A DNA stretch of 59,665 nucleotides from an uncultured Nitrososphaerota archaeon (lineage in GTDB: Archaea; Thermoproteota; Methanomethylicia; Nezhaarchaeales; WYZ-LMO8). Below are positions 30,417 to 59,618 of this stretch, in pieces (within the stretch, counting starts at the first letter, position 1; each line of letters begins with the position of its first letter). The stretch lies in NCBI GenBank assembly GCA_964586135.1, contig CAZPGS010000002.1, positions 1 through 59,665 on the forward strand, given 5' to 3'. The position numbers and the translations under genes were made by a program. Under the pieces are notes generated by a model. The model ran no database searches. It was not told the DNA's origin and saw only the letters and a list, made by a program, of their open reading frames with translations.

Positions 30417-30419
30417 CTC

Positions 30420-44067: not shown

Positions 44068-44299
44068 AGCTGCTTTTCATATCTAATTATCAGACTAACT
44101 TATTGAGCCTGCGAGCTTGAGGCCCCTATCATATTACATAGGGCCTCCTTCGCTTTCTACATCACATTCTTGTCTACAAACCCCTGATGTCACTTTACTT
44201 GCAAATTTGTTTATCAGACTCGCAAGTCCCACGTCGCATATACATTGCCTGCTCATGATTGCCATCAGCTTGCCCCTCTCTTGAAAACAAGTTGTAAGC

Positions 44300-44460
44300 A
44301 CAATTTCATAACTCTTTTTGTAGAGTTATATTATAAATTGTACTTAATTAAGCTTATAGTACTATAGTGTATAATAATCAAATTACTATAGTCTAGACAA
44401 AACTTCATATTATATTGGTTCTACATAAGACATGTACTAAACTCTTTTGGAGATTCGATA
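44300..44460. repeat. extremely AT-rich tract with short palindromes and repeats
   Basis: ACTATAGT occurs at 44361..44368 and 44385..44392. The inverted repeat ATAACTCT/AGAGTTAT lies around 44310..44330. TTATCAGACT is repeated at 44087..44096 and 44211..44220 just upstream. There is no ORF. Confidence 0.6.
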
Positions 44461-44853
44461 CTCGATTAAACGATTAGTTGTTGTCGATCACTGGCTCAAG
44501 ACCTCTCACGCTAACGTTCCCACAAGCTTCGAGCCCCTTCGTCTTAAACCCTACAAAAGTTGCATGGGGTAGAGGGCTGATATCAGCGTCAAGGGGGCTT
44601 GAAAATGCACGATAAGCTACCGATGAAAGCTGTCAACTAAACGTCCAAAAAACGCTTAATCATAGGCGCTACGACGTCGATGGTCACACGCGTTACTGCC
44701 CTTCTCTTCAACGTCCAAGCTCGTTATAACACATCAGAGCGCTAGAGGCGCTGGCCACGAGCCATATAATAAAATCCGCTTTAACTCTAAGAGAACACCT
44801 ATCTTTCTAGGCAAAGACTAGATCACGTGTAGGGCCGACCGCGCTAAAGACGA

Positions 44854-46062
44854 TCAGCGCGCTCCCTTCCGCTTCTTGTCAGCTCCTATAAGAGCTGAGA
44901 GTGTGAAAGGGCGGGCAGAATCGTGAACTTCACGTCGAGCTAAGCTTAGAGGAAAGCGTAAAGCTAATGCAAGTGACTTCAAGAACCCTCTAAGCTTCTT
45001 CATCCCTTTATACGGCTTGTTCTTCCCCGCTTTCGGATAATAAGCATATATTACGATGTCTATCTTATCGTTCGTTATTTCATGAATTAAATCCGTTAAC
45101 ATACAACATAACCTCTTGACCCCCTCCTCCGCGCAAAGCCCTGTCCTTTCTTGGAGGCGCGCTAACGCCGATTTGATGCTTGTCCAACGCGAGCGCTTTT
45201 CGGCCTTCCTCAATTCTCTCTCGAACCACATCGCGTCCCTCTCTATCAGGTCCGCTATGCTCATCGGTGACTTGGAAGCGACCTTCAATACCTTCATCAC
45301 CCTATCTTCCTCCTCCCTCCTCACCTCCATGTTGAAGGACGTCGTGGCGATCTTAGTAACAGGCTCTGGCTGTAGACTAGATGAGCTGAAGCCTGGATCA
45401 GCCTTGAAGCTAAGGCTTAAAGAACTTGGCGTCCTTACGGAGGCTAAGAACTTGTGCCTAGTATACATATAGTAAGCTGAGAGAGCGAAAGGTGCTATTG
45501 CTGGTATTAGCGAAGGTAATAAAAGGAGAAAGGCCTTGAGCTCGACCCCCGCCCTTTCCTTGATCTTAATGGGCTCTCCCTGCCAGTCAATGAGCTCTCT
45601 GAGCTCTTGAGAACCCTTTACGTAGACCTCTACGTGACCGTAAGGTAAGAGGCCGCAGTTTACCAACCCGCCTTCGCTTATCCCCTCGAAGACCAAGCCC
45701 GTCGAGAGGTGAGTCACTTTGTAATAAAGGCCCTTCGGGACTTCGAGAATTAGGTGACCGAGTGCCACCTTGGCCTCATATGTGGTGTTATCCTTAATGT
45801 TGTTGAGGCTATAGAGTTCCACCCCCTTGTATGTTATAGTCAAAAAGGACCGGTCCTCAATTATCGCGTGAGTCTCGTTGTAGAGCCTAGCGCCCACGAA
45901 CTCGACCTTGCTCGTGACGACGTTGTCCTCTTGGTCGTAGACTACTATGAAGCTCTCCGCGTTAGCAGTCGAGGGCATGAGGAGCGGTACCACCAGCGCT
46001 GTCAGTAAGAGCGCTGTCAGTAACGCTCTCGTGACTTTTGTGATTAGCCACTTGGCCGTCAT
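44854..46062 (-). CDS. hypothetical single-pass membrane protein (signal peptide, extracellular domain, TM, cytoplasmic basic domain)
   Basis: 402 aa. The N-terminal signal is LLTALLLTALVVPLLMPSTANA, the central TM is FLLLLPSLIPAIAPFALSAYYMY, and the C-terminal half is charged. Composition resembles the housekeeping block, not the GC-rich block next to it. Confidence 0.6.
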   Translation of the reverse strand: MTAKWLITKVTRALLTALLLTALVVPLLMPSTANAESFIVVYDQEDNVVTSKVEFVGARLYNETHAIIEDRSFLTITYKGVELYSLNNIKDNTTYEAKVALGHLILEVPKGLYYKVTHLSTGLVFEGISEGGLVNCGLLPYGHVEVYVKGSQELRELIDWQGEPIKIKERAGVELKAFLLLLPSLIPAIAPFALSAYYMYTRHKFLASVRTPSSLSLSFKADPGFSSSSLQPEPVTKIATTSFNMEVRREEEDRVMKVLKVASKSPMSIADLIERDAMWFERELRKAEKRSRWTSIKSALARLQERTGLCAEEGVKRLCCMLTDLIHEITNDKIDIVIYAYYPKAGKNKPYKGMKKLRGFLKSLALALRFPLSLARREVHDSARPFTLSALIGADKKRKGAR

Positions 46063-46162
46063 CCGTGGAACCCCTTAAAGCTGTTAGCCCTCCTTAAAGA
46101 CGCCTAAAAAGATGCACGGTTCCTCTCATCCCCCGACGTCTAAGTGCCGATTGGTTGAGTGG

Positions 46163-46588
46163 TTACTGGTAGCTCAAGACCTCTATCGCTATGTTATTCA
46201 TATCCACGCACTCGACGCTCAAGGCATAGGTCTGGCCCCCAGGTAGATCCAAGTCGCTCAGCCACACCTTGTACCTTATTGAGCGCTCATCCGCGCTCAA
46301 GACTATCTCGACGGCCCTGTCCACCGCCATCACATAGCCGACGGGTATCGAGGAGCCGTTTACCGCGAGCACGGGCCCCCTGATCGCTATTGAGGCAGTC
46401 TTCGGGACGTAGACGTTCACGATCACCTTCGAGCCCGGCCTCATGGCCACGGAGCTTATCGCCGTGTGGAGCGCCATGACGTCGGCGCTCGGCGCTACGG
46501 TTTGGCCTGAACTTGCCAGTAGCCCGAGGGCCACCGCGACGCAGGCCGTCGTGATTGAGAAGAGCACGAGTTTGTCCGCCACCTCCAA
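46163..46588 (-). CDS. pilin-like/accessory small protein with N-terminal hydrophobic helix
   Basis: 141 aa. The N-terminus is MEVADKLVLFSITTACVAVALGLLASSG, followed by a beta-rich domain. It is the last gene of the GC-rich pilus gene string. Confidence 0.5.
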   Translation of the reverse strand: MEVADKLVLFSITTACVAVALGLLASSGQTVAPSADVMALHTAISSVAMRPGSKVIVNVYVPKTASIAIRGPVLAVNGSSIPVGYVMAVDRAVEIVLSADERSIRYKVWLSDLDLPGGQTYALSVECVDMNNIAIEVLSYQ

Positions 46589-46602
46589 GCCCCTTCACCT
46601 CA

Positions 46603-47250
46603 TCAAGGCCTCAAGCGGATCCTCAGCCCCCTCTCGTCCATTACCTCTAGCGAGCTCGGTCTCTGGAGGTAATAGAGCTTCAGGGAGTCGCCAGAGGCCT
46701 CCACCTTGACGGGCTTGGGGTCAAAGGTCAGGCTCTGGCCGGTGATCTCGCCGTTCTCGTCGTAGAAGCTGATTGCCACGACGAAGTAGATGCCCTCGGG
46801 GGCGGCTGAGGCGACCGAGGCGCCGAACCTCACGCTACAGGTGTAGTCCACGCCCCTCCCGCCCACGCTCAGCGTGTACTTCACGGAGAGCGAGGCCTCC
46901 GACCAGTAGCCCACGGCCAAGGCGGGGTTGTTGGAGAGGATCATGTAGGAGCTCAGGGGGACGAACCGCCCGTCGAGAGCGTTCAAGTTCTGAGAGAGGG
47001 CCACGCCGACGGTCGGGGCCTTCCCGTTCACGTACGCCGCGAGCGCGTTGAGGGTCGCGTGCCTCAAGGAGGCCTCCGCCGTGCTCAGGTCCACCTTAGC
47101 TATCGGGACGTAGGTGGGCGCGTTCGTCGCTAGGGCGCCAGCCACCATCAGCATGACAAATCCCACGAGCAAGGCCACCACCGTGTAGTTCACGGGGGCC
47201 ACCTTCGTTCTCGCACGCCTTCGCTCGAGGAGTCTTAAAAGGGCGCTCAA
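46603..47250 (-). CDS. pilin-like/accessory protein with N-terminal hydrophobic helix
   Basis: 215 aa from TTG 47250. A TATA-like CTTTTAAG at 47234..47241 lies inside this N-terminus, so GTG 47202 (MAPVNYTVVALLVGFVMLMVAGALA...) may be the real start. Confidence 0.5.
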   Translation of the reverse strand: MSALLRLLERRRARTKVAPVNYTVVALLVGFVMLMVAGALATNAPTYVPIAKVDLSTAEASLRHATLNALAAYVNGKAPTVGVALSQNLNALDGRFVPLSSYMILSNNPALAVGYWSEASLSVKYTLSVGGRGVDYTCSVRFGASVASAAPEGIYFVVAISFYDENGEITGQSLTFDPKPVKVEASGDSLKLYYLQRPSSLEVMDERGLRIRLRP

Positions 47251-47289
47251 GCTTGACCGGGTTCTCTAGGAGCTCCGAGAGACGAGGCC

Positions 47290-47706
47290 TCAGCTCTTCA
47301 CGACGAGGCCCACGTACCTGCGGTTCACGTCGCCGTTGTAGCCGGACAGCACCACGACGGCGGCGACCCCCTCTACATCCTCCCCGACCTTCAGGAGGAG
47401 GTCGCCGTTAGAGCTACACACGGTCAGCTTGAAGGGCCTCGAGCCCACGAACGCCCTCACGTGTTGCGCTAGGAAGACAGAGTCGTTCTTGTAGACGGCT
47501 CTAACGAAGCTCGGGTCCCGTGCCAAGGCTGCTAGGGCGTCGCCTGGAGGTTCGGGGGGTGGGGCTTGGGAGGGCTTGGAGAGCACGCTCATGCACGCCA
47601 CCGCGAAGAAAAGCAGGACGAAGGAGGCTATGAAAGCATCTAGGAGGTGGGCCTGAGCTCTTCTCCCCGCTCTTCTCTCAGCCCTCGCGAGCGCCGCTGC
47701 CCTCAC
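47290..47706 (-). CDS. pilin-like/accessory protein with N-terminal hydrophobic helix
   Basis: 138 aa. An Arg-rich N-terminus is followed by AQAHLLDAFIASFVLLFFAVACMSVL. Its start overlaps the upstream gene stop by 4 nt. Confidence 0.5.
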   Translation of the reverse strand: MRAAALARAERRAGRRAQAHLLDAFIASFVLLFFAVACMSVLSKPSQAPPPEPPGDALAALARDPSFVRAVYKNDSVFLAQHVRAFVGSRPFKLTVCSSNGDLLLKVGEDVEGVAAVVVLSGYNGDVNRRYVGLVVKS

Positions 47707-48353
47707 GAGGAGTACTCCTCCCTCAGCATCACGAGCCCCGCGTAGCCCTTGAGGCGGGGGTCGCTCGGGCCGACCAATTTCGAGCCCACCATCCTCAGCT
47801 TGGACAGGTAGCCGTCGTCGATCGCCCTCGTTTGAGGGCCCGCGCTCGTCCTCACTACCATGAACTCCGAGGGCTCCACCTCATAGCCGGTGGTCACCTT
47901 CAGTTGGGGGTACAGGCCCGGGGCGCTCGCCAGGGGATAGACCCCCGCGGTCGTCACCACGAGCCCTCTAGGGTAGGCGGCCCCGTGCTTCACCCCGTAG
48001 CCGCTAGAGGTTATCGCGACTACCCACTCGTCTGAGTCGGCGCTCACCTTCGTCGGCAGGACCCGCTCCTCGAAGAGCCTCACCTGATGCGCCGCCCCGC
48101 TTGTCTTGATCACGGCTACCACGGCCCTGACCCCCTCCAGCCCGACCCCTATCGTCGCAACCTTTGACGAGGGGTCGTAATTTATCGGTATCTTGAGGAG
48201 GTAACGGTAGGCCACCGCGGCCACGTCCGGGGGCAACATGCTGGAGGCGTAGGCTAGGGCCGAGTAGTAGCCGAGGCCCGCGCAGAGCGCCAAGAAGAAC
48301 AGGAAGACGCCGGTCGCTATCGCGAGGTCGATGTGCTCCTCCACTCCCTCCAC
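47703..48353 (-). CDS. pilin-like/accessory protein with N-terminal hydrophobic helix
   Basis: 216 aa. The N-terminus is ..EEHIDLAIATGVFLFFLALCAGLGYY. An alternative GTG start at 48344 fits the TATA-like box at 48368..48375 better. Confidence 0.5.
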   Translation of the reverse strand: MEGVEEHIDLAIATGVFLFFLALCAGLGYYSALAYASSMLPPDVAAVAYRYLLKIPINYDPSSKVATIGVGLEGVRAVVAVIKTSGAAHQVRLFEERVLPTKVSADSDEWVVAITSSGYGVKHGAAYPRGLVVTTAGVYPLASAPGLYPQLKVTTGYEVEPSEFMVVRTSAGPQTRAIDDGYLSKLRMVGSKLVGPSDPRLKGYAGLVMLREEYSS

Positions 48354-48430
48354 ATGCTAGGAAGGGGTTAAAAAGGCGACGGCACTCGGGGCACCCGGAG
48401 CTACGGTGCCATCGGCGTCGTACTGCCCCC

Positions 48431-50110
48431 TTAGACCCAGCCCATCGCCGCTCCCGTGAACAGCTCAAGCACGACGATCAGGCAACACATGGCGGCGTCC
48501 CTGAAGCCCTCCCCGAGCTTGAAGGAGGATATCTTCCCGGCTATCAGGCCGCATATGACCGCGGAGGTCGCTACCCCCAACATCACTTGGCTCGCTATGT
48601 AGGGCATGTCCTCCGGGGTTATCATTATCGCGAAGGGCATCGAGGCGACCGCTTGCTGCGTCATCGTCATCGCGCCCAGCCTCGCGAGCATGGGCATGAC
48701 GAAGCCCATGAGCGCTATCGCTATCCCGCCCGCCAGCGCGACCCCGAACATGATCATCCACCGGTTGAGGGCGATGTTGCTCCTGTACTCGCTCACGGAG
48801 TCCACGTGCTCCCTGAAGGCCTCAGCGAGGCCGTCGAACGCCTCAGCCCTCGCTCCCAGCTCCTCCAGGTCCCTCATGAGGTCTAAGGCGAGGAGGGCCG
48901 GCTTCGGGAGCAGGTGGGCTGTGTCCTTCAGCGCCCTGTCGAAGCCGCTCAGCCTGGCCTTGTTCACCAAGAGCTTCAGGAACCTATCGAAGAGCCTCCC
49001 GTAAACCCTCGTGGACAGGTACTCCAAGGCCTTGAAGGGGCTGGAGCCCCTTCTCACCTCGTCCGCCAGATCCCTTAGGAAGGCCGGTAGTTTCTCTATC
49101 ACTTCCGTCAGGGCCCTGTCGTGCCTCTTCCACTCCATGTAGGCCGGCACGGCAAAGCCCGCGCACGCCGCGACGACTGCGAGGGCCGAGGCGAACCTTA
49201 TCATCAGAGGTAGCCTGAGGAGGCCCAAACTCACGCACGCTCCCAAGGTCACCCCCAAGGGGAGCCACTTCATCAAGGGCCTGGTGTACACGGGCGAGTA
49301 CTGCTGAGGGGCCACGTCGGGGCACATCGCGTCGGCGATCACTATGAGCATCCCACCCATCGTTAGGAAGACGACCGAGAAGAAGAGGATCATCATCCCG
49401 ATCTGTTGCGAGGCTAGGAGCATGAGCATGGTGTAGACGCTCACGGGCAGGATGCAGAAGATGGAGGTCACGGCGGTTGCCAGAGTGCTCATCCTGTTGC
49501 TCATCGCCTTGAAGGAGGCCTTTAGGGCGTTTAGGGCCTGCACGTGGAGGTCCCTAAACGCCTGGACTGGGGAGCCACCCGTCCTCTCCAAAAAGGCCAT
49601 CGTCGTGAGTAGTTGCCTCCACACCCCGCCTATCGGCCTGTCGGCCTCCTTGGAGAAGACGGTGGGGAGGGGCTCGAGCGTTATGGAGGCGTCCCTGAAC
49701 AGGCGCTTGAGCTCGAAGCTCGCATGGGGGAGGGTGAGCTCCTTCTCCCTCAGGCGATTGGCTATCTGGATCGTCGGGAGGCCGGCCTGCGCGTAGGCGT
49801 CCGCCATCAGGACGGCCCGGTAACTCTCCTCCGCCAGCCTCTTCAGGTGCGACTTGTAGTCCCTGTACGGCTTCGTGTAGAGGAAGAAGACGAGAGTCGA
49901 GAGCGCGAGGATAATCAGGATGGCCTGGAGCGGAGGGTCGGGTGGAGATAGCTGGGGCGCCGAGCGCTTCACGAGGAGGAGCATCGCGAGGGGAAGGGCC
50001 GGGACGAAGGAGTAGGCGAGGGCCTTCTTGAACCTCCTGTAGAGGGCCTCCGGGTTCTGGAAGAGGTAGTAGCGGCAGGCCTCCTCGAAGAGCCTCCTCA
50101 CGTGAGGCAA
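48431..50110 (-). CDS. FlaJ/TadC/PilC-like polytopic membrane platform protein of a type IV filament system
   Basis: 559 aa with at least 7 hydrophobic segments and two soluble helical regions, as in T2SS-F/FlaJ proteins. Its start lies 4 nt after the stop of the secretion ATPase, the canonical ATPase-platform pairing. Confidence 0.7.
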   Translation of the reverse strand: MPHVRRLFEEACRYYLFQNPEALYRRFKKALAYSFVPALPLAMLLLVKRSAPQLSPPDPPLQAILIILALSTLVFFLYTKPYRDYKSHLKRLAEESYRAVLMADAYAQAGLPTIQIANRLREKELTLPHASFELKRLFRDASITLEPLPTVFSKEADRPIGGVWRQLLTTMAFLERTGGSPVQAFRDLHVQALNALKASFKAMSNRMSTLATAVTSIFCILPVSVYTMLMLLASQQIGMMILFFSVVFLTMGGMLIVIADAMCPDVAPQQYSPVYTRPLMKWLPLGVTLGACVSLGLLRLPLMIRFASALAVVAACAGFAVPAYMEWKRHDRALTEVIEKLPAFLRDLADEVRRGSSPFKALEYLSTRVYGRLFDRFLKLLVNKARLSGFDRALKDTAHLLPKPALLALDLMRDLEELGARAEAFDGLAEAFREHVDSVSEYRSNIALNRWMIMFGVALAGGIAIALMGFVMPMLARLGAMTMTQQAVASMPFAIMITPEDMPYIASQVMLGVATSAVICGLIAGKISSFKLGEGFRDAAMCCLIVVLELFTGAAMGWV

Positions 50111-50114
50111 GGCC

Positions 50115-51746
50115 TTAAAAAGAGGGGCGGGCCTCCTGGCAACGCGCTCCTCGGGCCGGCTGCGCGGGCGGCGGGGCCAGCAGGCGCTCCGTCTTCGTGA
50201 ACTCCTCTAGCCTCTCTATGAGGTCCTTCGGGTCGCGGTAAAACTCCGTGAGGGCCCTGAGCCACTCGCCCGGCTCCGCCAGCTTCTCCCGGAGCCCCTT
50301 GACCGCGACCAGGCTCAAGAACCTTGCCCGCAATCTCCAGGAGGCCTCGACCTCGGCCTCACCCTTCAGGCCCCTCTCTGCCACGGCCCTGAGCACGGGC
50401 CTTGGGTCCTCCATCACCACCCTGTCCTCCTCCGGCTTGTACCTCGCCACGGCCACGCACTTGGGCCTGAAGTCCTCGTCCAGCCCCTCCACGAAGTATA
50501 TCGCCTTGACCCTCCTCAGCCTCTGGGTCTTTGTCTGGAAGAGGCCCATGTGCGCTAGGAGCCTCAGCTCCGCCGCGAGGGCCCTCTCCATGCCCAAGTC
50601 CTTGAGCCTGCCGAAGAGCGCCTCGGGAGACTCGGCGTGTATCGAGGCGAGGCCCCCCTGCCCTATCCCGAGGGCCTGCCCGAAGACCCTCGCCTCCTCC
50701 CCCCTTATCTCATTTATAGTTATGTAGTCGCAGTCGTACCTCAGCAGGTGCTTCACGAGGTCCATCATGGTTATCGCGCCCTCGCCGGCTATCCCGAACC
50801 CGGTTCTCTCGTACATGAGCACCTTGCCCGGGTGTGGGACGTCCATCTCGGGTATGTCGCATGCTATCCCTATCCTAGCCTCAGGGGGGAGGAGCATCGC
50901 GACTGCGTTTATCAGGGTCGTCTTCCCGCTACCAAGCCCGCCGAAGCTCACCAAAGCCAGCTTGTGCTCCGAGGCTATCCAGAGGAGGGCCATGGCCTCG
51001 GGGCTTATCACGCCGGTCGCCAGGTAGAGCGGGGGCGTCCAAGGCCTCTTCGGGAACTTCCTTATGACGAAGCTGGAGCTCCTCGCGACCTCCCCCTCCC
51101 CCAAGGTCAGGGCCGCCCTATCCCCCGTCGGCAACACCACGCTCACCTGGGGCCTGAAGCGCGATATCGACCTCCCTCCCCTGTAGGCCAGCAGCCTGAC
51201 CATCTCGTCCAGTTGCTCCTTCGTGAGGTGGACGTTGGTGGGCATCCTCCCGAACCTCCTGTGGGTAACGACGACCGGCCTGTCGGGCGAGTCACAGGCT
51301 ATCCCCTCCAGCTCGTCGTCCATGACCAAGGGGTGTATCGCCTTATAGCCCACGACCTCCCTCTGGATCAAGTAGCGGAGGGCCCTAGTCTCGTAGTCCT
51401 CCTCTCCCAGCCCGAGGGCCTCGAAGACCCTCGCCAGCCCGCCCTCCACGTCCTCCGGCCTCACTATGTACAGCAGGACCTCGTCTATCAGCCTCTGGGC
51501 CTTGTAGAGGGTCTCGTCGTCCACCTTTGGGTCCTCGACTACGTACTTGTAGCCCTCCCTCCCCTCTACTATCGCGACCTTGGCGAAGCCGTCCGGGGAG
51601 TAGAGGGCGCGCTCCACGCCCTCGTAGTCCTGCTGCCTCGGCCTCGTGAGGACTATTCTCGGCCTGAAGCCGGGCGGTAGCTTCGGGGGGGCCTTCTCGG
51701 CCCCTGAGGATCCCGAGGGCCTGCGCCCGAAGGGGTTCAGCCTCAT
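50115..51746 (-). CDS. FlaI/VirB11-type type II/IV secretion ATPase (pilus/archaellum assembly ATPase)
   Basis: 543 aa. Walker A SFGGLGSGKTTLINAV, Asp/Walker B region CDYITINEIRGEEA, His box GGLASIHAESPEALFGRL, and an N-terminal domain with the YKYVVEDP motif as in FlaI/UpsE/AapE-type proteins. Confidence 0.85.
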   Translation of the reverse strand: MRLNPFGRRPSGSSGAEKAPPKLPPGFRPRIVLTRPRQQDYEGVERALYSPDGFAKVAIVEGREGYKYVVEDPKVDDETLYKAQRLIDEVLLYIVRPEDVEGGLARVFEALGLGEEDYETRALRYLIQREVVGYKAIHPLVMDDELEGIACDSPDRPVVVTHRRFGRMPTNVHLTKEQLDEMVRLLAYRGGRSISRFRPQVSVVLPTGDRAALTLGEGEVARSSSFVIRKFPKRPWTPPLYLATGVISPEAMALLWIASEHKLALVSFGGLGSGKTTLINAVAMLLPPEARIGIACDIPEMDVPHPGKVLMYERTGFGIAGEGAITMMDLVKHLLRYDCDYITINEIRGEEARVFGQALGIGQGGLASIHAESPEALFGRLKDLGMERALAAELRLLAHMGLFQTKTQRLRRVKAIYFVEGLDEDFRPKCVAVARYKPEEDRVVMEDPRPVLRAVAERGLKGEAEVEASWRLRARFLSLVAVKGLREKLAEPGEWLRALTEFYRDPKDLIERLEEFTKTERLLAPPPAQPARGARCQEARPSF

Positions 51747-51828
51747 GTAACTGACCCCCTTAAAAAGGCCCGCGGCTAGGAGGTAAAGAAGAGGAAGGGG
51801 GTTTGGGGCTCGCCCGCGCTACGCAACG

Positions 51829-52263
51829 CTAGCCGGAGAGGCACACGACCATTACTGGGTAGGACTTCGTGGCGCCCCCGCTAAAGGTCACCGTCACGAT
51901 AGTGAGGTACTGCTGGCCGGCCACAAGGCTGGGAGCGCCAGAGCCACCCGAGGAGAGGAACCCCGAGAGGCTCCTCTCGCCACCCGGAGGTATTGAGGTA
52001 CCCGTACTGAACGTGCCGACAGGTTGTGTCTGGGAGCCGGCCCCCCTCGGGTAGACCGTCACGGACACGGCCGTTATATCGACGGAGCCCACGTTCCTCA
52101 CGTTCAAGATTACCCTGCCGGTGCTGAAGATGCTTACCCCGCTGATCATGGCGTCGGTAGTTTGGGCCTGTTGCGCTATCATCGGTATTATCTGGGCGGC
52201 CACGAACCCCGCCACGGCTATCGTCGCCACGAAGAGCACCAAGAACTCGGCCGAGAGCTTCAC
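51829..52263 (-). CDS. archaeal type IV pilin-like protein (paralog 2)
   Basis: 144 aa with a GTG start. The N-terminus is MKLSAEFLVLFVATIAVAGFVAAQIIP, followed by a Gly/Ser/Thr/Val-rich beta domain. A TATA-like TTTTAAAAG lies 24 nt upstream. Confidence 0.7.
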   Translation of the reverse strand: MKLSAEFLVLFVATIAVAGFVAAQIIPMIAQQAQTTDAMISGVSIFSTGRVILNVRNVGSVDITAVSVTVYPRGAGSQTQPVGTFSTGTSIPPGGERSLSGFLSSGGSGAPSLVAGQQYLTIVTVTFSGGATKSYPVMVVCLSG

Positions 52264-52332
52264 CCCTCTGCCACCGGTTAAAGGGATTTTAAAAGAGGGA
52301 GGGGTTTTGAGGGCCCTCTCGGCTCGCGCTGT

Positions 52333-52758
52333 TCAGATGCTCCTGACTATGGCGGCCACGTCCTTGGCGACGACCTTGCCGTCGGCGAAGGTGCATTCTA
52401 TCCTGAACGTTATCCTGTCCCCAACGTTGGCCGTGTAGCCCCTGACCTCCAGCTGGACCATGTCGCCAGGCTTGATCGGCTTGGCGACGTCCACGAGACT
52501 ACCGTCAACGTAGGTGACGTCACATTCTTGCTGGGTCTCTCTGACCGTCGCTTTTACGGCCACTCGCACCATGTCTACCGTCGCCAAGTTCTTTATCTTG
52601 ATGTAGGTCCTCTCCCTGAGGCACTGGTCCACCTGCGGCGTGAAGTCCGGCGTCCCGGCCATCGAGGCGCCTATGTAGCCCATGCCCCAGGCGGCGACGG
52701 CGCCGACGACTGCTATTGTCACCACCAGCAGTATCACGGTCTCTATGCTCAGCTTCAC
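52333..52758 (-). CDS. archaeal type IV pilin-like protein (paralog 1)
   Basis: 141 aa. The N-terminus MKLSIETVILLVVTIAVVGAVAAWGMG parallels the neighbouring pilin. A TATA-like CTTTTTAAAG lies 27 nt upstream. Confidence 0.7.
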   Translation of the reverse strand: MKLSIETVILLVVTIAVVGAVAAWGMGYIGASMAGTPDFTPQVDQCLRERTYIKIKNLATVDMVRVAVKATVRETQQECDVTYVDGSLVDVAKPIKPGDMVQLEVRGYTANVGDRITFRIECTFADGKVVAKDVAAIVRSI

Positions 52759-52773
52759 TTCCCGAGCACCTCG

Positions 52774-53172
52774 TCATAGGGCCCCTTTAAAAAGGGGTGA
52801 GGCCCCTGGGAGCCCCGAGGGCTGGAGGCCGGCGCCCACCCCTAAGGGCCCTCCGCAGGAGCTCCGCAGGGAGGGGAGCGAAGCGACCTCCGAGAGCGAC
52901 GAAGCCCTCAGGCCGGCCCTCCCCTCCAGCGACCTCAGCGCCATCCTCTCCTCGTACTTCGAGGAGACCTCCTTGAAGTTCCTCCTTAAGAACATCACGA
53001 CGAGCTCCGGCTTGGTCAGGAGGCTCGGGTAGCCCCTTCACGAAGTTGACGAGGATCTCGTAGAAGGCCTCCCCGAGGCGGCTCCCCAGCTCTCCTCCAG
53101 CCCCTCTCTGATGGCCTCCTCGATGGCCCTCTCCACGTCGCCCTTGGGCGCCAAGGTTCTGCCACTCCTCAC
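52774..53172 (-). pseudogene. small soluble protein gene with two compensating frameshifts (or homopolymer sequencing errors)
   Basis: A GTG at 53172 overlaps the upstream stop (GTGA). The third-position GC pattern supports frame a (..GDVERAIEEAIREGLEE), then frame b (LGSRLGEAFYEILVNFVKG), then frame a again (YPSLLTKPELVVMFLRRNFKEVSSKYEERMALRSLEGR..). Frame a alone hits a TGA. Both switches lie at G-runs (CTGGGGAG, AAGGGGCT). Confidence 0.3.
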
Positions 53173-53498
53173 CCCCCGATCCAGGCGTAAGCGCCGTCCG
53201 AGTTTATGACGACGAGCGTCCCCCCGGCGGACTGGTACCCGGTCTTGGGGATGGGCTCCTCCTCGCTCGCGCCGGAGGAGCTGACGACGACCTTGTCCGC
53301 TTGGATCTCCACGACAGCGCCTCCCACGTAGACGGCCTCGGAGCCCCTGAGGCCGCTCAGGCCGCTCGCCAGCCGCTTCGCCACGTTGTCCGCCTGAACC
53401 CTGAAGACGACGTACAGCTGGGGCTGCATCAATGTCACGAAGCTTGTCACCATAAACACCGCCAGCATTGAGCCGATGAGCGCCGAGATGGTCCTCAT
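53169..53498 (-). CDS. pilin-like small protein
   Basis: 109 aa. The N-terminus MRTISALIGSMLAVFMVTSFVTLMQ has the same M-[KR]-x-[SI] short leader plus hydrophobic helix as the two pilins, followed by a beta-rich C-terminal part. Confidence 0.55.
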   Translation of the reverse strand: MRTISALIGSMLAVFMVTSFVTLMQPQLYVVFRVQADNVAKRLASGLSGLRGSEAVYVGGAVVEIQADKVVVSSSGASEEEPIPKTGYQSAGGTLVVINSDGAYAWIGG

Positions 53499-53594
53499 GT
53501 AGGCCTCCGCTTAAAAAGAGGGAGGGGCCCCTGGGAGCGACGGCCTTGGACTGGCCGGAGCCCGCCCTCGGCTCTCCCTCTTCGGCCTAGGGGC

Positions 53595-53798
53595 TCAGGC
53601 CTCGAAGAAAAGGGAGGCGAGGTCGACGCTGGACAGCAGTATGGCCAGGTTGTTGATCGGTGCGAGGACCACGGGAAGCAGGAAGGCGTACTCCGCTCCC
53701 TCGCCGCCCCCAGGCCTCTCCCCGAGCCTCTTCAATAGGCAGAGGGCGAGGTATATTGTGAGGGCCTCGACGGGCGCGTAGAGCGGCAGGACGACCAA
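53595..53798 (-). CDS. hypothetical small membrane protein
   Basis: 67 aa with a TTG start and two hydrophobic segments. The support is weak because many spurious frames stay open in GC-rich DNA. Confidence 0.25.
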   Translation of the reverse strand: MVVLPLYAPVEALTIYLALCLLKRLGERPGGGEGAEYAFLLPVVLAPINNLAILLSSVDLASLFFEA

Positions 53799-53895
53799 GC
53801 CGCGCTCGAGACCCGTCCCCTAGCGAAAGCACGGCGTGGGTCGTGATCCGCTCAAACACGCTGGACTTTTGCCTCTTTTTAAGCCCACAGACCAC

Positions 53896-54552
53896 ATGCT
53901 GAGGACGACCGAGAAGGCCGTCTTAATCGCGTGTTGCGTCGCGGGCATAGCGATAGCCCTCCCGCTCTGGAACCCCTACGCCAAGGTCTCCACCTTGAGC
54001 TTGGAGTACGTGAGGGGACAGGCCGTCAAGTGGGCCCGTTGCCTAGAAGAGGGGACGCCCTTCGCGTTCGACGTCCCGGTCCTCGTCGAAAGCGAGAGTG
54101 TTGCGATAAGGGTCGACCTCCCCAACGAGCAACCGCTGGTGGTCAGGGCCGTCAAGTCCAAGCTGAAGATACCCTGCCCCGAGGCCTCGAGAGGGATCCT
54201 GCTCTACGGCCCCCCAGCCTCCTGGTCGAGCGAGAGGAGGGCGAAGGTGTATCAGGAGCAGGGCTTCGTGGTGGTGGAGCTGATCCCGAGGGTCCAGATC
54301 ACCGCGACCTCCGAGTCGGGCGCTAGGGTCTACGTGGTGAGGGTGGAGCTGTTCAGGGCGGACCTCTCCCAAATAGAGGCGGGCAAGGCCATCGGGCCCA
54401 AGGGGATTCAGGGGCTCGCCTACACGAGGGGCTACGACTACTCCGGGTCGAGCAGGGTCTACCTCGACAACGTCGAGGTGACCCGGAGCCCGCTCTCCGT
54501 CGTCAAGGGCGACGCCGCGAGGGTGATAATCGCCTACGAGGCGTGGGGCTGA
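53896..54552 (+). CDS. hypothetical N-terminally anchored secreted protein
   Basis: ATG 53896 gives MLRTTEKAVLIACCVAGIAIALPLW... (TM anchor) followed by a beta-rich domain. The longest ORF starts at 53836. A CTTTTTAAG box lies at 53875..53883. This is the only plus-strand gene in the GC-rich block. Confidence 0.55.
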   Translation: MLRTTEKAVLIACCVAGIAIALPLWNPYAKVSTLSLEYVRGQAVKWARCLEEGTPFAFDVPVLVESESVAIRVDLPNEQPLVVRAVKSKLKIPCPEASRGILLYGPPASWSSERRAKVYQEQGFVVVELIPRVQITATSESGARVYVVRVELFRADLSQIEAGKAIGPKGIQGLAYTRGYDYSGSSRVYLDNVEVTRSPLSVVKGDAARVIIAYEAWG

Positions 54553-54949
54553 GCCCCGGAGTTCGGGGGACGGCCGTGCGCGGGATGGGGTCACCCATCA
54601 GGTGCGTATGTCATCAAAGTGACGCGCTCCCATCGCTTTTCATCAGCTTGAGGTCGCCCGAAAGTGGCCCATAGCGATCATGGTCTCACCGCTAGGAGTA
54701 ACACCATTCCGAAAAAGTACATGCGCATTTCGAGGCTACAAGTGGCTAGGGCCTGCGAGCTGAAGGCTACATGTCCAGCCCACCTTTGATGGAGAAAAGG
54801 AGCTTATGTGCAGGGGCTCAAGCACGTGACGCTTCTCTATATAAAAAAGGAGCTAGGAAGGGATGCTGTGAATGCTCTGCTAAAAACGCCTCTCCATATT
54901 GCTCCTCTGTTAGGCTCCGGCGCGGAGGCGGCTAAGGCCTTCCAGTACT

Positions 54950-56656
54950 TCAAGGAGCCTTCACAATGGCTATGACGGCGCCGACTATCGTAGCGACGAT
55001 GGCAACGTACCAGAGCACCTCCGTCATTGGGAGCCGGACGCCGAAGGGCGGCGCCCTTGCCTCGACGACCACCTCAGCGGTCGAAGGCTCGTAGAGGTCA
55101 CTGCCAGCGTAGGAGGCCGTGACCGCGTAGCGGCCGGCCTTCTCGAGCTCAACGGGGACGGAGAAGGAGCCATCCCCGCCCGCCGTCACCTCAATCGTCT
55201 TCGCGGACCCGTCGGGCCTCCTGATAGTTATCGTTATCGGGACCGCCATCGCTGGCTCCACCCTCCCCCTGACCACGACCTCCCCTCCCACGTTCACGAC
55301 AGAGGGCTCTGCCGACAAGGCGATGGCGGTCGCGAAAGTGACCTTGAGGGCGCCAACGTCCTTAAAGGCGACCTCCCTCACCTCCGCGTCCCCGAGCCTC
55401 ACTTTAACGCCCTCCTTGGGGAGGACGGAGAGGGTGGCGTCGTCGAGGGCGAGGGCCTTCAGGGGGAATGGAGGGAGGGCGGCACAGAGCGCGACCGACG
55501 CGTTGGAGAGGGCCTTGAGTGTGTCGGCGGGTGCCGAGGCGCCCTTCTTCACGACCCTAGGCGTGACGAGGGTCATCGTCAAGAGGGTCGCGGGAGAGGT
55601 AGCGCTCCCGGCCTCCTCGAGCGAGAGGCACAACCTCCCTCCCTCCACCACCGAGAAGTCCCTGGCGAGGGCTGTCAGGGCGTGGAACAGGAATTGGACG
55701 TCCACCGCGTAGAAGGGCGGGGGGAAGTAGTGCCGCCCGAAGACGTCGTCAACGATGCAGGCGAAGAGGGCGGCCCTGAAGAAGTCCTCATGCAAGGCCC
55801 TCAGAGAGGCCCTCGCGCGACAGGCCGTCGAGTTCTGAAAGGTGCCCACGTAGAAGGTGATGGGGAGGGGCGCCGAGGGAGGACTGAACACCTCGTCGAA
55901 GAGGGTGAAGACGGCCTCGACGCCGAGGAGCTCCCTGAGCTCCTCGACCACCTCCTCCTTGTCGATGAGCGCGCGGAAGCCTACTGCCAGCTCCCCGCCA
56001 CCTTCGCGCTCGGTCTTGGTGGCGTTTAAGACGTCGACGGCCTTGATGGCGTCGCCCCAGCCGGTGAGGCGGGACCGGAAGAGGGAGGCCACGAGGCTCT
56101 TCAGGAGCTCCTCGTCGGTGACGTCGATCACCTCCAAGAAGGCGGTGAAGTTGCCGGTGGCCCTCACCCATAGAAGGCCCCTCCAGGCAGCCCTCGGCCC
56201 GGTGGCCCGCTCATCGACGACGGAGAGGGAGAGCGACGCTTCTGACGTCCCGACCTGCGCCCTACTCTTGAGGCTTATCGCCGTGGCGTCGCCCAGCTCC
56301 GCCCGCACCTCCGTCCCGCTCGCCTCGAAGGAGTAGGTAGGCGTTTCTCCAGGGCTGAGGGTCAGTAGCGTGCAGACCTCGAGGGAGGCGTTCAGGGAGC
56401 CCGTCGGTTCATCGACTTCGAGAGGGGCATTCAGGGACAGCTTGAGGGGCATTGGCTCAAGCCTTCCGACGACGCGGAGGGCGAGCGCAACGCTCCCGTC
56501 CCTGTACACGTAGAGGGTCCCGCTGACCTCCGTCCTCGCGGCCGCCTCCTCGGGGAGGGCCTCCGCGAGGGCTGGAGGCGCCGGAGAAGTCAGGAGGGCT
56601 AAGAGGGCTAAGACTAGCGCCAGCGCCACAGACGCGGGCCTCGAGCTACCCGGCAC
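54950..56656 (-). CDS. large secreted/cell-surface protein with signal peptide, Ig-like (CARDB/Big-like) repeat and C-terminal TM anchor
   Basis: 568 aa with a GTG start. Signal peptide ASVALALVLALLALLTSPAPPALA, Ig-like segment VNVGGEVVVRGRVEPAMAVPITITIRRPDGSAKTIEVTAGGDGSFSVPVELEKAGRYAVTASYAGSDLYEPS, and C-terminal anchor VLWYVAIVATIVGAVIAIV. Confidence 0.65.
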   Translation of the reverse strand: MPGSSRPASVALALVLALLALLTSPAPPALAEALPEEAAARTEVSGTLYVYRDGSVALALRVVGRLEPMPLKLSLNAPLEVDEPTGSLNASLEVCTLLTLSPGETPTYSFEASGTEVRAELGDATAISLKSRAQVGTSEASLSLSVVDERATGPRAAWRGLLWVRATGNFTAFLEVIDVTDEELLKSLVASLFRSRLTGWGDAIKAVDVLNATKTEREGGGELAVGFRALIDKEEVVEELRELLGVEAVFTLFDEVFSPPSAPLPITFYVGTFQNSTACRARASLRALHEDFFRAALFACIVDDVFGRHYFPPPFYAVDVQFLFHALTALARDFSVVEGGRLCLSLEEAGSATSPATLLTMTLVTPRVVKKGASAPADTLKALSNASVALCAALPPFPLKALALDDATLSVLPKEGVKVRLGDAEVREVAFKDVGALKVTFATAIALSAEPSVVNVGGEVVVRGRVEPAMAVPITITIRRPDGSAKTIEVTAGGDGSFSVPVELEKAGRYAVTASYAGSDLYEPSTAEVVVEARAPPFGVRLPMTEVLWYVAIVATIVGAVIAIVKAP

Positions 56657-56739
56657 TCATCTCACCCCGTGGGCTCGGCTAGTTGAAGGGGCCTTAAAAG
56701 AGGGGCGGCAGAGGGCCTGGCGACAAGCCGAAGTAGCCC

Positions 56740-58752
56740 TCACGCCTTTTCGAGCAGTATGCAACCGAACGGCCCTCTGGCGTAGAGCACGCCGGTGGCC
56801 TCGCTACACCAGGCGATTGCCCAGACCTCGTAGCCGCTCACCGGCAACGAGAGCTCGCCACGGGCGAAGTAGACGGTGCCGTCCGAGTAGGCGGTCTTGG
56901 TGACCTCCCAGATCCGCTCCGCGCCCAGATCCTTGACCACGAGCGTGACCCTAGCGCGGGGGACGGGCGCGTAGTCCGGTGCCCTGTGTTCGTAGACCCT
57001 CAGCTTGAACCCGCTCGAGTCCCTTTGAAGGACGGAGAGGGCAAGCTCCCTGTACTCGGCGGAGTTGCTCTCTAGGGCGAACTCGTCTGTGGCGGGGGTC
57101 ATGGGTATCGAGGACAGCCCATTGACCCTGTGGCCGGTCGGCCTCAAGATTTGAGGGTCGATTGAGTCGCTCTCCGCGTAGCTGTGGTTGCTCGAGTCGA
57201 TGCCGGTCTTCAAGCAGACCCTCCTCGTCTCCAAGTCCAAGCCGTAGTAGAGGTAGGGCCTGTTCTTGACGGGGGAGTTGTCGTCGCACCAGAGGCCGTA
57301 GACCCTTATCACGCAGGAGGAGGGCGAGAGCCAGATCTGGTGCACTTCAGGCCTTATGGAGGCGAGCCTGACGTAGATGGTGAAGTCCTTCGAGCCCCCG
57401 CCGTAGGACACGGTTATCACGACGGGGACGTCAACGTAGTCCACCCCCTGGAGGAGCTTGGCCCTGAACACCTTATCTGATTGGAAGCGGACCCACCCGC
57501 TCCTCAGGTCGTCCTCCGTTATCTCCTTGGTGGCCTCGAAGCTACCGCCGTCGGCGTACAACGCCCTGTTGAACGGGTCGCTAGGGTCGATGGTCCAGAA
57601 GTACTCCTTCGGGAAGGAGGCGCTGACGGTCATCTTCACGCCCGGGCTACCTTGGACCTGCACGTAGACGTTGGGCCTGAAGAAGTCCCCGAAGGCGAGC
57701 TTGGTGGGGCCGCTGGGGTCGCTCGGCTCGGCCCAGCCCCGGGGAAGCAACTCCACGGCCGAGTCCTCGTCCTCCAGTCTCCAGTCCTCGGGGCTGGTGA
57801 AGGGGAGGATCACCCTCGGGTCCGCCGTCAGGTTTACGGCCAGGTCTGGAGTGAAGGTTATCTCGACGCTCTCGAACTGGAAGGCGCAGTCGTTGCGCTG
57901 ATCCCACGGCACGTACTGGTAGAACTTCTCGTCGTAAATACTGAGCTCGGCGTCCGTGTGGGCGAGGAGGCCGAAGTAGATGTAGTACTCGCCCGGCTCG
58001 ATCCCCTCCTCCGAGGTGTTGATCGCTATCTCCGGAGTCCAAGTGGTCCCGGTACTGATCTTCTCACCCACCCTGAGGGTGAACAGGTGCTGCAAGTAGC
58101 CGACGCTCGCGTTTTCCCAGCTCGTGCCACTCGGATAGCCCTCCCACTCTACCTCCGTCACCCAGCCGAGCCCCGGCTCGTACCGCACTTCTCTTATTAT
58201 CCTGATGAGGCACACTTGGAAGTAGACGTCTGCGCGAGCCCGGTAGGGATAGCGGCTAGGAAGAAGCTGAGGGTCATAGGTGGGCTTCGCGACGAAGTCC
58301 TGCACCGCCTTGATGCTCGCCCTCACCCTTATGGAAAAGTTGCCCTCGGGGATCTTGATCGACTCCTTCGTGTAAAAGCCCGCGTAGGTCCACATGTCCT
58401 TCTCGTGGCCGCGTACCCTGACCGTCACGCCCCCTTTGATGCCCTTTAGCGCGGGGCCCCAATCCGTAATCCACCTCAGCTCGCCGTCGTAGTAGAAGCA
58501 GTAGCCCCACGAGCGCCCGACCACGTGGTAGGTCCCGTAGGGCCCTTCGAGCCTCTCCGCATAGCCCATCTCCCACCGCCAGAAGTTCTCGTCGAAGGGA
58601 GGGGCCGTGAGGACGTCGGCCCCAGCTGAGCTGAACGGGGTGAGGGGTTCGAGCAGGAGCGAGAGGGCTAGTGCTAGTAATGCGAAGGTTTCGAAGGCGT
58701 TGGCCCTCCTATTTTCAAAGGTATTGCGTGTGAGAGGCTCCCCGAGGCTCAC
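56740..58752 (-). CDS. large secreted hypothetical protein
   Basis: 670 aa with a GTG start. The N-terminal hydrophobic segment is FETFALLALALSLLLEPL. The body is Trp/Tyr-rich and beta-type with no motif I can name. Confidence 0.6.
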   Translation of the reverse strand: MSLGEPLTRNTFENRRANAFETFALLALALSLLLEPLTPFSSAGADVLTAPPFDENFWRWEMGYAERLEGPYGTYHVVGRSWGYCFYYDGELRWITDWGPALKGIKGGVTVRVRGHEKDMWTYAGFYTKESIKIPEGNFSIRVRASIKAVQDFVAKPTYDPQLLPSRYPYRARADVYFQVCLIRIIREVRYEPGLGWVTEVEWEGYPSGTSWENASVGYLQHLFTLRVGEKISTGTTWTPEIAINTSEEGIEPGEYYIYFGLLAHTDAELSIYDEKFYQYVPWDQRNDCAFQFESVEITFTPDLAVNLTADPRVILPFTSPEDWRLEDEDSAVELLPRGWAEPSDPSGPTKLAFGDFFRPNVYVQVQGSPGVKMTVSASFPKEYFWTIDPSDPFNRALYADGGSFEATKEITEDDLRSGWVRFQSDKVFRAKLLQGVDYVDVPVVITVSYGGGSKDFTIYVRLASIRPEVHQIWLSPSSCVIRVYGLWCDDNSPVKNRPYLYYGLDLETRRVCLKTGIDSSNHSYAESDSIDPQILRPTGHRVNGLSSIPMTPATDEFALESNSAEYRELALSVLQRDSSGFKLRVYEHRAPDYAPVPRARVTLVVKDLGAERIWEVTKTAYSDGTVYFARGELSLPVSGYEVWAIAWCSEATGVLYARGPFGCILLEKA

Positions 58753-59433
58753 GTGGGGCTGTGCTTAAAAGGGGGCTGAATGTCAAGGGGAAGACTTAGA
58801 GCGAGGTCGCGGCCTGCGCTTGATGGTTATGAAGTGATGTTCGTCGCCCGACCTTCGACGGGAGGACGTGGAGAAAGCCCCACTGATTATGGTCGGCATC
58901 GTCACCATAAGCTCGGCGCTAGCTTAGCGCTAGCTAAAAATGGCGACTCCCGTAGGAAGTTGCATGGCGATTGCCTTCGCCGAGCAACTAGCCAATTGAA
59001 GAGGCCGTCCCTTTAGCTATTAGATAAGAACGTGGAGTCACGCTATAGAGTAGTAGGCTTGTCAGAGATCGAAGAGGCTTGAAGGCGGAGGCCTTGAAAT
59101 AGGGGTCTCAGAGAGTGATCACCGTGTCGGTTGCGCAACACACAACCGAGATGGCTCTATCGAGCGATCCTTAACGCAGTTCAGAGCTTAAGGCCCTTGA
59201 TGCTACAAGGGCCCGAGAAAGTTGACGGCCACACGTCCTTCGTCATGATCTCTGGCTCTCATGTTGTGCGCTTGAATTAGGTCTTGCCACTCAAGGTTGA
59301 GAGGAGACATTGTTGAAGTAGCATTTAAGCACGTTTATACTTTTGGACCGCCTATCGTGGTGGACTTAGCCCTGACGAGACACAACCATCAAGTCTCAGT
59401 AAAAATGTGATGCGAGGTGAAACGGATATGCAA

Positions 59434-59506
59434 AGCCCCGGGCGGGATTCGAACCCGCGACTTGCGGCTTACAAGGCCGCCGCCATAACCGCTAGGCAAC
59501 CGGGGC
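59434..59506 (-). tRNA. tRNA-Thr (anticodon UGU)
   Basis: The reverse complement is GCCCCGG-UU-GCCU-AGCGGUUA-UGGC-G-GCGGC-CUUGUAA-GCCGC-AAGUC-GCGGG-UUCGAAU-CCCGC-CCGGGGC-U. It forms a cloverleaf of 73 nt with no intron and no encoded CCA. Confidence 0.9.
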
Positions 59507-59618
59507 TTAAAGTACCAATTTCGGGAGACCATAAAAGCGTTAATGTCCTCAGCGATCTCAGCCTCTCGAAGCAAGCTTTTATTTCGGGCTTTGCTCTTTT
59601 TCTAATCGCTTAATCAGA

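Follow-up and report, generated by a model that had tools for sequence, protein, structure and literature searches.

Great diversity is found among archaeal type IV pili, of which few have been studied. The only solved structure matched in both fold and sequence profile by the pilin family of the system described here is the 'flagellar-like' pilus of Pyrobaculum calidifontis (8FK7), a non-supercoiling filament with ten-stranded packing and an extended N-terminal pilin helix, which is encoded by a locus without FlaF or FlaG but with a KaiC-like gene and was proposed as a step towards the archaellum (PMC10334743). The layout of subclade 4A of the Desulfurococcales is also similar, consisting of an ATPase, a TadC-like platform protein and 3-4 extra components of untraceable origin, proposed as a minor pilin set (PMC4858521). 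In subsystem 4A, accessory genes are located downstream of that for the platform (10.64898/2026.04.22.720090), and the loci often contain an adhesin gene and often two platform genes (PMC4858521; 10.64898/2026.04.22.720090). Here we analysed a stretch of 59,665 nucleotides (the window) from an uncultured thermophilic archaeon related to Nezhaarchaeales, in which a G+C-rich block at 46163..58752 harbours an entire putative pilus locus. Judging from its genes, the block is a predicted machine belonging to the superfamily of type IV filaments (TFF) and a new variant of the archaeal type IV pilus. The locus is resident and not a new insertion. Its alleles far exceed the flanking genes in age and show a strong GC enrichment in the lineage of the window. 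We consider it probable that this history is best explained by orthologous allele replacement or gene conversion with GC-richer relatives.

The window belongs to a 167-kb contig from a hot-spring metagenome (Ga0212122_1000008, JGI 3300022546); near-identical copies of this contig are present in five other assemblies. Only 37 single-nucleotide polymorphisms occur among these six population contigs, with no usable outgroup for polarising them. For comparison with related loci (designated by L numbers), we used L001, which is the window DNA reversed and extended by 2 kb beyond the end of the window (a position in L001 subtracted from 61747 gives the window coordinate). The genes were named by length as g670, g568, p238, g109, g141a, g144, ATPase, platform, g216, g138, g215 and g141b, and the native neighbours as g402, g359 and g61. 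Among the named relatives, the closest is a metagenome-assembled genome (MAG; L007) of Candidatus Nezhaarchaeales, with 77% identity of the ATPase, and more distant ATPase relatives come from Thermoprotei, Culexmicrobium and Methanomethylicota MAGs, including the Thermoprotei MAGs L008, L009 and L019 with 37-42% identity. The four ATPase lineages are roughly equidistant from each other (amino-acid identity of 0.79-0.83).

Core machinery and pilins

The secretion ATPase (50115..51746, minus strand) matched PF00437 with an E-value of 7.6e-17 (61 bits vs. a cut-off of 24.9), and its motifs are intact, with the Walker A sequence GGLGSGKTT at residue 269, a Walker B-like ITINEIRGEE and the His-box residue H370. 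Its best relative among solved structures is GspE of Archaeoglobus fulgidus (2OAP), a distant paralog from a euryarchaeon, which was matched with 204 bits over residues 50-515 and shows the same domain order and catalytic motifs, followed by FlaI (119 bits) and CpaF (95 bits). A previous interpretation of the DNA made without database searches (the sequence-only reading) had described a FlaI-type ATPase, but the protein is nearer to 2OAP than to FlaI. The adjacent platform protein (48431..50110, minus strand; likely start at 50101) contains T2SSF domains in two stretches (PF00482, 29.2 bits vs. a cut-off of 25.2) and nine hydrophobic segments, and a sequence search against the PDB gave no match for it. 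As it is the sole protein with multiple membrane segments among the screened window open reading frames (ORFs) of at least 109 amino acids, there is no prepilin peptidase among them, in agreement with the earlier claim that the window contains none.

The platform gene is followed by four genes for small proteins, all on the minus strand. These are g216 (47703..48353), which has one N-terminal helix (..EEHIDLAIATG) and may be a minor pilin or a component of assembly, g138 (47290..47706), which carries a canonical class III motif and overlaps the end of g216 by 4 nucleotides, g215 (46603..47250; ..NYT plus helix), with a likely start near 47202, and g141b (46163..46588), the last GC-rich gene. 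Each of the small proteins of the block has exactly one hydrophobic segment, located at the N-terminus, and none gave a meaningful match to Pfam (also at E<=10) or NCBIfam, with no hits to Pilin_N or Class_IIIsignal. The order of ATPase, platform and four small helix proteins recurs in L008, L009 and L019. Together with the pilins described below, three parts of a TFF machine are present, namely the ATPase, an adjacent polytopic platform protein and a pilin built of a helix and a globular domain.

The best candidate for the major pilin is the product of g144 (51829..52263, minus strand), as suggested by its AlphaFold2 model, Foldseek and a family profile. The model (predicted local distance difference test score, pLDDT, of 83.9) consists of a 28-residue N-terminal helix (residues 4-31), to be set beside the extended helix of the P. 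calidifontis pilin, and a 7-strand beta sandwich. The top Foldseek match was 8FK7_A over the full length (E 9.4e-8, 24% identity), and the profile of the family, which comprises 13 relatives found by word search and about 100 clusters in 1.84 billion representatives, returned 8fk7 as its single significant PDB match (E 4.8e-5). In both proteins, an Ig-like sandwich comes after a helix, and they share motifs such as VNVRNxG and AGxxY, but their identity amounts to 24% only, and the deposited P. calidifontis chain is about 7 residues longer at the N-terminus. The loci resemble each other in belonging to Thermoproteota hyperthermophiles and in containing one ATPase and platform without FlaF/FlaG. 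They differ in that the KaiC-like gene of P. calidifontis, which also occurs in the relatives L027 and L028, is missing in the window, and in that the P. calidifontis locus spans only about 5.5 kb, whereas we find 13 genes here, including those for four small post-platform and two large surface proteins.

The sequence-only reading had made its case depend on class III signal peptides in the small proteins, and we found them, as judged by eye, in only two cases. The small pilin-like protein g109 (53169..53498, minus strand) has a short canonical class III-type N-terminus (MRT/ISALIG, with the slash marking the site; MRA/VSA in homologs), and g138 contains the canonical class III-type site RRA/QAHLLDA (KRA/Q, DKA/Q and KRG/E in homologs). 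In contrast, g144 and its paralog g141a (52333..52758, minus strand) start with M-K-L-S-A-E and M-K-L-S-I-E, respectively, without any leader, and g216, g215 and g141b are almost without one. All 13 database homologs of these pilins start at the same place, and the pilin genes of L027 and L007 show an in-frame stop just upstream and a GAGGTG ribosome-binding site before a GTG start. The wider pilin family is mixed, containing leaderless members starting with MQIT.., MRES.. or MSAEF.. as well as canonical ones (KKG/LSTSIETV, RRG/LTAIETA, KRG/ISPL). In the alignment, the leaderless start falls where canonical members have their mature N-terminus, so the clade of the window appears to have lost the leader. 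As a separate observation, up to 30-36 repeats of the beta-sandwich domain of the pilin family occur in giant metagenome proteins, namely P0044 (4886 amino acids), P0047 (4587 amino acids), P0051, P0054 and P0055, suggesting that the domain also serves as an adhesin-type repeat.

Subclade 4A is recognised by an ATPase in clade 4A, pilins of arCOG11238/arCOG06117 and 3-4 extra post-platform components. In a comparison of the layout, it matches the window, L008, L009 and L019. None of the small window proteins was matched by Pfam or NCBIfam. Moreover, the window contains one long platform gene where subsystem 4A often has two. A likeness to the Tad/Flp and Epd systems is seen in the ATPase matches to CpaF and TadA (95-107 bits) and in the small single-helix proteins encoded after the platform gene, as with TadE/F/G, and some distant g141b relatives start with M-E-T-x-E-Y, reminiscent of the 'EY' motif of Flp. 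However, the TadA score of 107 bits is well under the cut-off of 373, the window locus has no dedicated peptidase gene, and its pilins carry a globular beta domain that is lacking in Flp and Epd. The Aap pilus of Sulfolobales is made up of AapE/AapF, the pilins AapA/AapB and the Fe-S protein AapX. No Fe-S domain protein was detected in the block by Pfam or NCBIfam.

From these components we infer how the machine may work. The hexameric secretion ATPase and the polytopic platform protein would pull pilin subunits out of the membrane, which would then polymerise via their N-terminal helices into a non-rotating filament. This filament would consist mainly of g144 and/or g141a, the putative homologs of the P. 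calidifontis pilin, while g216, g138, g215 and g141b as well as g109 and p238 may act as minor pilins or assembly components, and g670 and g568 as surface or adhesin-like accessories. The prepilin peptidase required for g109 and g138 would be encoded elsewhere in the genome, and the main pilins, having lost their leaders, would probably enter assembly uncleaved.

Two other types of machine were considered. An archaellum, and thus a rotary motility organelle, could be suspected from FlaI as the top NCBIfam match of the ATPase, from FlaG (5TUH) ranking third in the Foldseek search with the g144 model, and from the KaiC/FlaH-like genes of the relatives L027 and L028. However, the FlaI score of 161 bits stays well under the cut-off of 550 and is joined by the better match to 2OAP, no FlaH, FlaX, FlaF or FlaG family was matched, the small proteins gave no match to archaellum accessory or archaellin families at E<=10, and there is no KaiC-like gene in the window, which makes an archaellum extremely improbable. 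The sequence-only reading had come to the same view and had also seen no similarity to the Ups or Aap gene orders of Sulfolobales, which for Ups agrees with an UpsF score of the platform protein of only 48.8 bits vs. a cut-off of 400; orthologs of UpsE/UpsF or BasE/BasF were not found. Alternatively, the block may code for a bindosome- or secretion-like TFF device which displays or exports g670, g568 or other surface proteins, or for a remnant with another role. The co-located large surface proteins would fit such a device, it has been argued that binding proteins often functionalise TFF machineries (preprint 10.64898/2026.04.22.720090), and BasE is the second-best NCBIfam match of the ATPase. 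Yet the BasE score of 149 bits is far under the cut-off of 1000, the block contains no substrate-binding-protein or ABC-transporter domains recognised by Pfam or NCBIfam, and the pilin family is homologous to the subunit of a real filament (8FK7), so we rate this alternative as improbable and retain the pilus assignment.

Composition, position and allele history of the block

The G+C content, analysed in 1-kb windows, is 0.60-0.67 across 46001-59000 and 0.43-0.57 in the rest of the window, and a 200-bp profile locates the rise at ~46.15-46.3 kb and the fall at ~58.7-58.9 kb. The single dip inside the block (0.49-0.53) coincides with the intergenic stretch at 54.6-54.95 kb. At third codon positions, the G+C content (GC3) reaches 0.78-0.90 in all 13 genes of the block, compared to 0.49-0.71 in 38 other window ORFs, and the first and second positions and the amino-acid usage are shifted as well (Ala 11.2% in the block vs. 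7.7%; Lys 3.6% vs. 7.3%). The G+C-rich block from ~46.1 kb and its excess at third positions, recognised by eye in the sequence-only reading, are thus confirmed by measurement, as are the long antisense ORFs, e.g., those of 347 amino acids opposite the ATPase gene (50637-51680, plus strand) and of 322 amino acids opposite g670 (57481-58449, plus strand). The block nevertheless keeps the codon dialect of its host, with AGG making up 0.70 of the Arg codons and ATA 0.55 of the Ile codons; ATA stays at this share while other A-ending codons drop three- to five-fold, and codons keep the ranking they have in the host, in a more extreme form. Any donor would thus have to be a related hyperthermophile. 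Expression-linked codon bias was rejected as an explanation because the highly expressed gene for ribosomal protein S8e has a GC3 of only 0.63 and the gene pair at 29193-31109 one of 0.57-0.58.

The GC jump recurs with identical borders in L035 and L037, which show ~90% nucleotide identity to the window (locus 0.60-0.69, flank 0.41-0.57). It is weaker in L029/L034 (ATPase identity of 83%; 0.57-0.62 vs. 0.41-0.48) and missing in L027/L039 (ATPase identity of 82%; 0.51-0.60 vs. 0.47-0.59), and the distant relatives L008, L009 and L019 have a native composition without any contrast between locus and flank.

The position of the locus is conserved on both sides. DUF488, tRNA-Ser and tRNA-Thr directly precede it in L007, L027, L028 and the contig of the window, and the DUF488-side flank is also found before it in L035 and L039. 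The other border, at which g141b is followed by g402, g359 and g61, is common to L029, L033, L034 and L037, and L033 runs on to the tRNA-Pro region like the window. Across the border, flank and locus of the window are equally ~90% identical to L035. Because the locus occupies the same site in its relatives, it is resident and not an inserted island. We detected no att-like repeats between the borders or tRNA flanks, the longest common word being 11 nucleotides, and no integrase or mobile-element remnants, also not in the small ORFs that lie between 41.8 and 42.8 kb and between 58.8 and 59.0 kb. The tRNA genes which the sequence-only reading had reported on both sides are indeed present, tRNA-Pro at 41588-41663 and tRNA-Thr(TGT) at 59433..59507 on the minus strand, the latter adjoining the locus as a conserved flank in L007, L027, L028 and L001; an Rfam scan of the window detected these two tRNAs and nothing else. 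Its proposal of a horizontally acquired island is not upheld: the conservation at the same place in relatives, which it had named as speaking against acquisition, applies to the position, while the composition differs by lineage. What survives of the horizontal idea is a different allele history of the locus, not the arrival of a new module.

We also considered a circular or episomal element, as L029 joins the end of g61 to a g670-like gene. This was rejected via the longer contig L034, in which the g670-like gene is followed by the gene for a chromosomal NfeD-type protease; L033, from the same sample, runs on to tRNA-Pro.

The history of the alleles was assessed by counting transversions at fourfold-degenerate sites in codons encoding the same residue. 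Comparing L035/L037 with L039/L027, we counted 82/996 in the flank and 367/1191 in the locus, corresponding to corrected distances of 0.090 and 0.479 (Fisher p 1.9e-41). The values for the window and L029 were 30/212 and 220/682 (0.166 and 0.518, p 1e-7), and those for the window and L037 were 3/299 and 63/957 (0.010 and 0.071, p 3.8e-5). In all three comparisons, the locus thus exceeds the adjacent genes 3-7-fold in synonymous transversion distance. The excess is unevenly distributed, since the comparison of the window with L037 yielded 28/239 for the ATPase gene vs. 1/174 for g216 and g138 together (p 2e-6), revealing a mosaic within the locus. At the protein level, the ATPases of L037 and L039 share an amino-acid identity of 0.82, compared to an average of 0.88 for ten flanking housekeeping proteins (L035 vs. 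L039). Exchanges between G and C account for 35% of the fourfold differences in the ATPase gene but for 4% in the flanks, which rules out simple drift from AT to GC in place as their source.

The excess of fourfold transversions, the mosaicism and the host-like codon dialect together favour orthologous replacement or gene conversion at a resident pilus locus, which we regard as the probable history of the block. Its alleles would have been repeatedly replaced or converted from related, GC-richer hyperthermophilic archaea, and GC-biased gene conversion (gBGC) may have contributed to the G+C content. In bacteria, homologous recombination at conserved flanks replaces hypervariable surface loci such as those for pilins, flagellins or O-antigens. 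The block may be likened to them in its conserved site, atypical composition, mosaic structure and allele divergence far above that of the flanks; it is unlike them in that the anomaly covers the whole machine including ATPase and platform, in its archaeal origin and in having no known donor.

Recent horizontal transfer of a foreign pilus island into a site between tRNA genes, as the sequence-only reading had it, would account for the sharp GC and GC3 step, the tRNA genes on both sides and the excess divergence of the block, but is already largely refuted by the orthologous loci found at the same site, with both borders conserved, in at least five related lineages. The equal identity of flank and locus to L035, the absence of att repeats, integrase or mobile-element domains, the host-like codon dialect and the origin of all nearest ATPase relatives from the same archaeal group further argue against it, and we consider it very improbable. 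Another alternative is vertical inheritance of the locus with an increase of its GC3 in place and without import, either by gBGC in the population or by selection, for example against AT-rich promoter- or terminator-like sequences in a block that uses TTTTAA signals. In line with this, two diverged lineages sharing the border differ in how strongly their GC is elevated, the ranking of codons is only a more extreme version of that of the host, TTTTAA is restricted to sites upstream of genes (see below), and recombining genes are richer in GC3 in many prokaryotes (PMC4450053). However, the reported gBGC effects in prokaryotes amount to a few GC3 points and not to ~25 (PMC4450053), the low GC3 of the highly expressed S8e gene speaks against expression-linked codon bias, and the 3-7-fold transversion excess, especially of exchanges between G and C, and the mosaic are left unexplained, so that a rise in place appears unlikely.

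Several points weigh against allele replacement in a resident pilus locus with leaderless main pilins. No GC-rich donor was found, as all ATPase relatives at 77-83% identity come from loci with a G+C content of 0.53-0.59. The raised G+C content in L029 as well could reflect a process bound to the locus rather than import, and a locus-specific or locus-bound mutational process may formally be considered. In addition, the pooling of L035 and L037 into one lineage assumes that both stem from one genome. As to the machine itself, the predicted filament is known from genes alone and no peptidase gene is linked to it, the model of g670 is of low confidence (pLDDT 60.5), and a literature search returned nothing relevant on leaderless archaeal pilins or Nezhaarchaeota pili and no experimental precedent for leaderless pilins. 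A still further-reaching combination, in which the leaderless pilins bypass the prepilin peptidase and the whole locus is a hot spot of allele exchange with its 25-point GC3 excess as a gBGC footprint, is put forward tentatively, and we doubt somewhat that both parts hold together.

Accessory genes, upstream motif and neighbourhood

The gene list of the sequence-only reading agrees with ours in containing two large secreted proteins, a pilin-like protein of 109 amino acids, a broken gene, two pilin paralogs, the ATPase, the platform and four small proteins. The first of the large genes, g670 (56740..58752, minus strand), codes for a secreted or anchored all-beta multidomain protein of 670 amino acids with an N-terminal hydrophobic helix, which is a candidate adhesin or accessory surface protein. 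It has just seven database relatives and no Pfam or NCBIfam match, and its AlphaFold2 model shows several beta-sandwich domains but gave uninformative Foldseek matches (TM ~0.1). The gene moves within the neighbourhood, as it lies downstream of g359-g61 in L029 (12067-13415) and L034 (10001-11932) and not beside tRNA-Thr; L007 has neither g670 nor g568 between tRNA-Thr and p238, and L027 contains an extra fragment of the g670 C-terminus (894-1556) upstream of the full-length gene. The product of g568 (54950..56656, minus strand) is a predicted cell-surface protein that has a signal peptide, contains an Ig-like Big_3_5 domain at residues 447-530 and is anchored in the membrane at its C-terminus.

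The claim that the real genes form one minus-strand string fails for p238 (53896..54552), a real gene on the plus strand which had been overlooked. Its ORF opens at 53836 with a likely start at ATG 53896, and it codes for a protein of 218 amino acids with one N-terminal helix, has a GC3 of 0.86 and its own upstream motif, and shows 85%, 72% and 59% identity to homologs in L035, L027 and L007, respectively. In these three relatives, p238 and the ATPase gene share their orientation, and the 763-bp segment 53830-54592 containing it is inverted in the window (90% nucleotide identity to L035). The inversion breakpoints end in short imperfect inverted repeats (GTGGGTCGTGATCC / GATGGGTGACCCC). Because all six population contigs show the orientation of the window, the inversion seems to be fixed and not a switch.

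Next to g141a lies a pseudogene (52760..53130, minus strand), a twice-frameshifted homolog of a soluble protein of 155 amino acids, which is intact in L027 together with a paralog of 107 amino acids and broken in all population variants. Several assemblies break exactly at this pseudogene, with L035 ending and L029 and L037 beginning there, and the population contigs differ by indels of 1-3 nucleotides near 52840. In the L027/L028 lineage, two additional genes (171 and 324 amino acids) lie between the g138 and g215 homologs (L027 14722-16346), and KaiC-like ATPase genes take the place of g141b-g402 (L027 17239-18665).

The genes of the block are preceded by a common motif, CCYTTTTTAAG, one of whose ten sites lies at 50115..50120 on the minus strand, the others being located at 58765, 56694, 53877 (plus strand), 53511, 52787, 52289, 51760, 48368 and 47235. 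The hexamer TTTTAA occurs 11 times at these 10 sites in the 12.8-kb block, compared to an expectation of 0.55 +/- 0.75. Every site is placed 12-37 nucleotides upstream of a gene start in sense orientation, and there is no other TTTTAA in the block. The consensus is kept in the relatives, whereas the native window genes are without the motif. The copy belonging to p238 sits inside the inverted segment, which fits gene-autonomous signals. TATA boxes usually lie at about -26. We rejected the motif as a standard TATA box, as its spacing of 12-14 nucleotides to the start codon in six cases does not fit this geometry.

Beyond the border of the block, g402 (44854..46062, minus strand) codes for a membrane protein of native composition (GC3 0.61) and is syntenic with the locus in four lineages. 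The likewise syntenic g359 (42988..44067, minus strand), also of native composition, adjoins the pilus locus in four lineages and codes for a protein with a TFIIB zinc ribbon (PF08271, E 5.5e-8) and no cyclin repeats detectable by Pfam. It is the second TFIIB-ribbon protein of the window besides a canonical TFB with a zinc ribbon and two TFIIB repeats (34740-35669, minus strand). A scan of metagenomes with g359-based patterns, which were too degenerate, returned two loci, one of them L033. TFIIB homologs linked to type IV pilus loci were noted by Makarova et al. (PMC4858521), and as a guess, we name g359 as a candidate for a dedicated regulator of the locus. The AT-rich stretch at 44100-44850 upstream of g359 (G+C content down to 0.27) had been taken for decayed DNA. 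It is ~95% identical in L037, still alignable in L029 and without a match in Rfam, and because of this conservation, it more likely represents a regulatory intergenic region.

Two further genes of the surroundings may be mentioned. An enoyl-CoA hydratase-like gene between DUF488 and the tRNAs codes for 128 amino acids in the contig of the window (L001 1046-1432, shortly past the end of the window) and 236 amino acids in L035 (8002-8712), and is not present at that position in L027; the copy in the window's contig is probably decaying. The class II aminoacyl-tRNA synthetase encoded at 38960-40537 (plus strand) carries an N-terminal tRNA_bind_4 domain (PF18490), which we take to be a domain of methanogen-type seryl-tRNA synthetases.

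The locus links an uncultured Nezhaarchaeales-like lineage to the sole solved 'flagellar-like' pilus. It allows composition, synonymous divergence and synteny to be separated and might serve as a test bed for studying GC evolution driven by recombination in archaea, and its island-like GC jump, belonging to a resident locus with a different allele history, calls for caution in composition-based island-calling. The points of most interest are the leaderless main pilins and the gene-by-gene motif. The occurrence of CCYTTTTTAAG before one gene after the other, close to a gene for a TFIIB-ribbon protein, suggests a dedicated design of the transcription units. The class III signal (prepilin) peptidase is regarded as a core part common to all TFF machines, and leaderless major pilins, if true, would challenge its status as an obligatory component.

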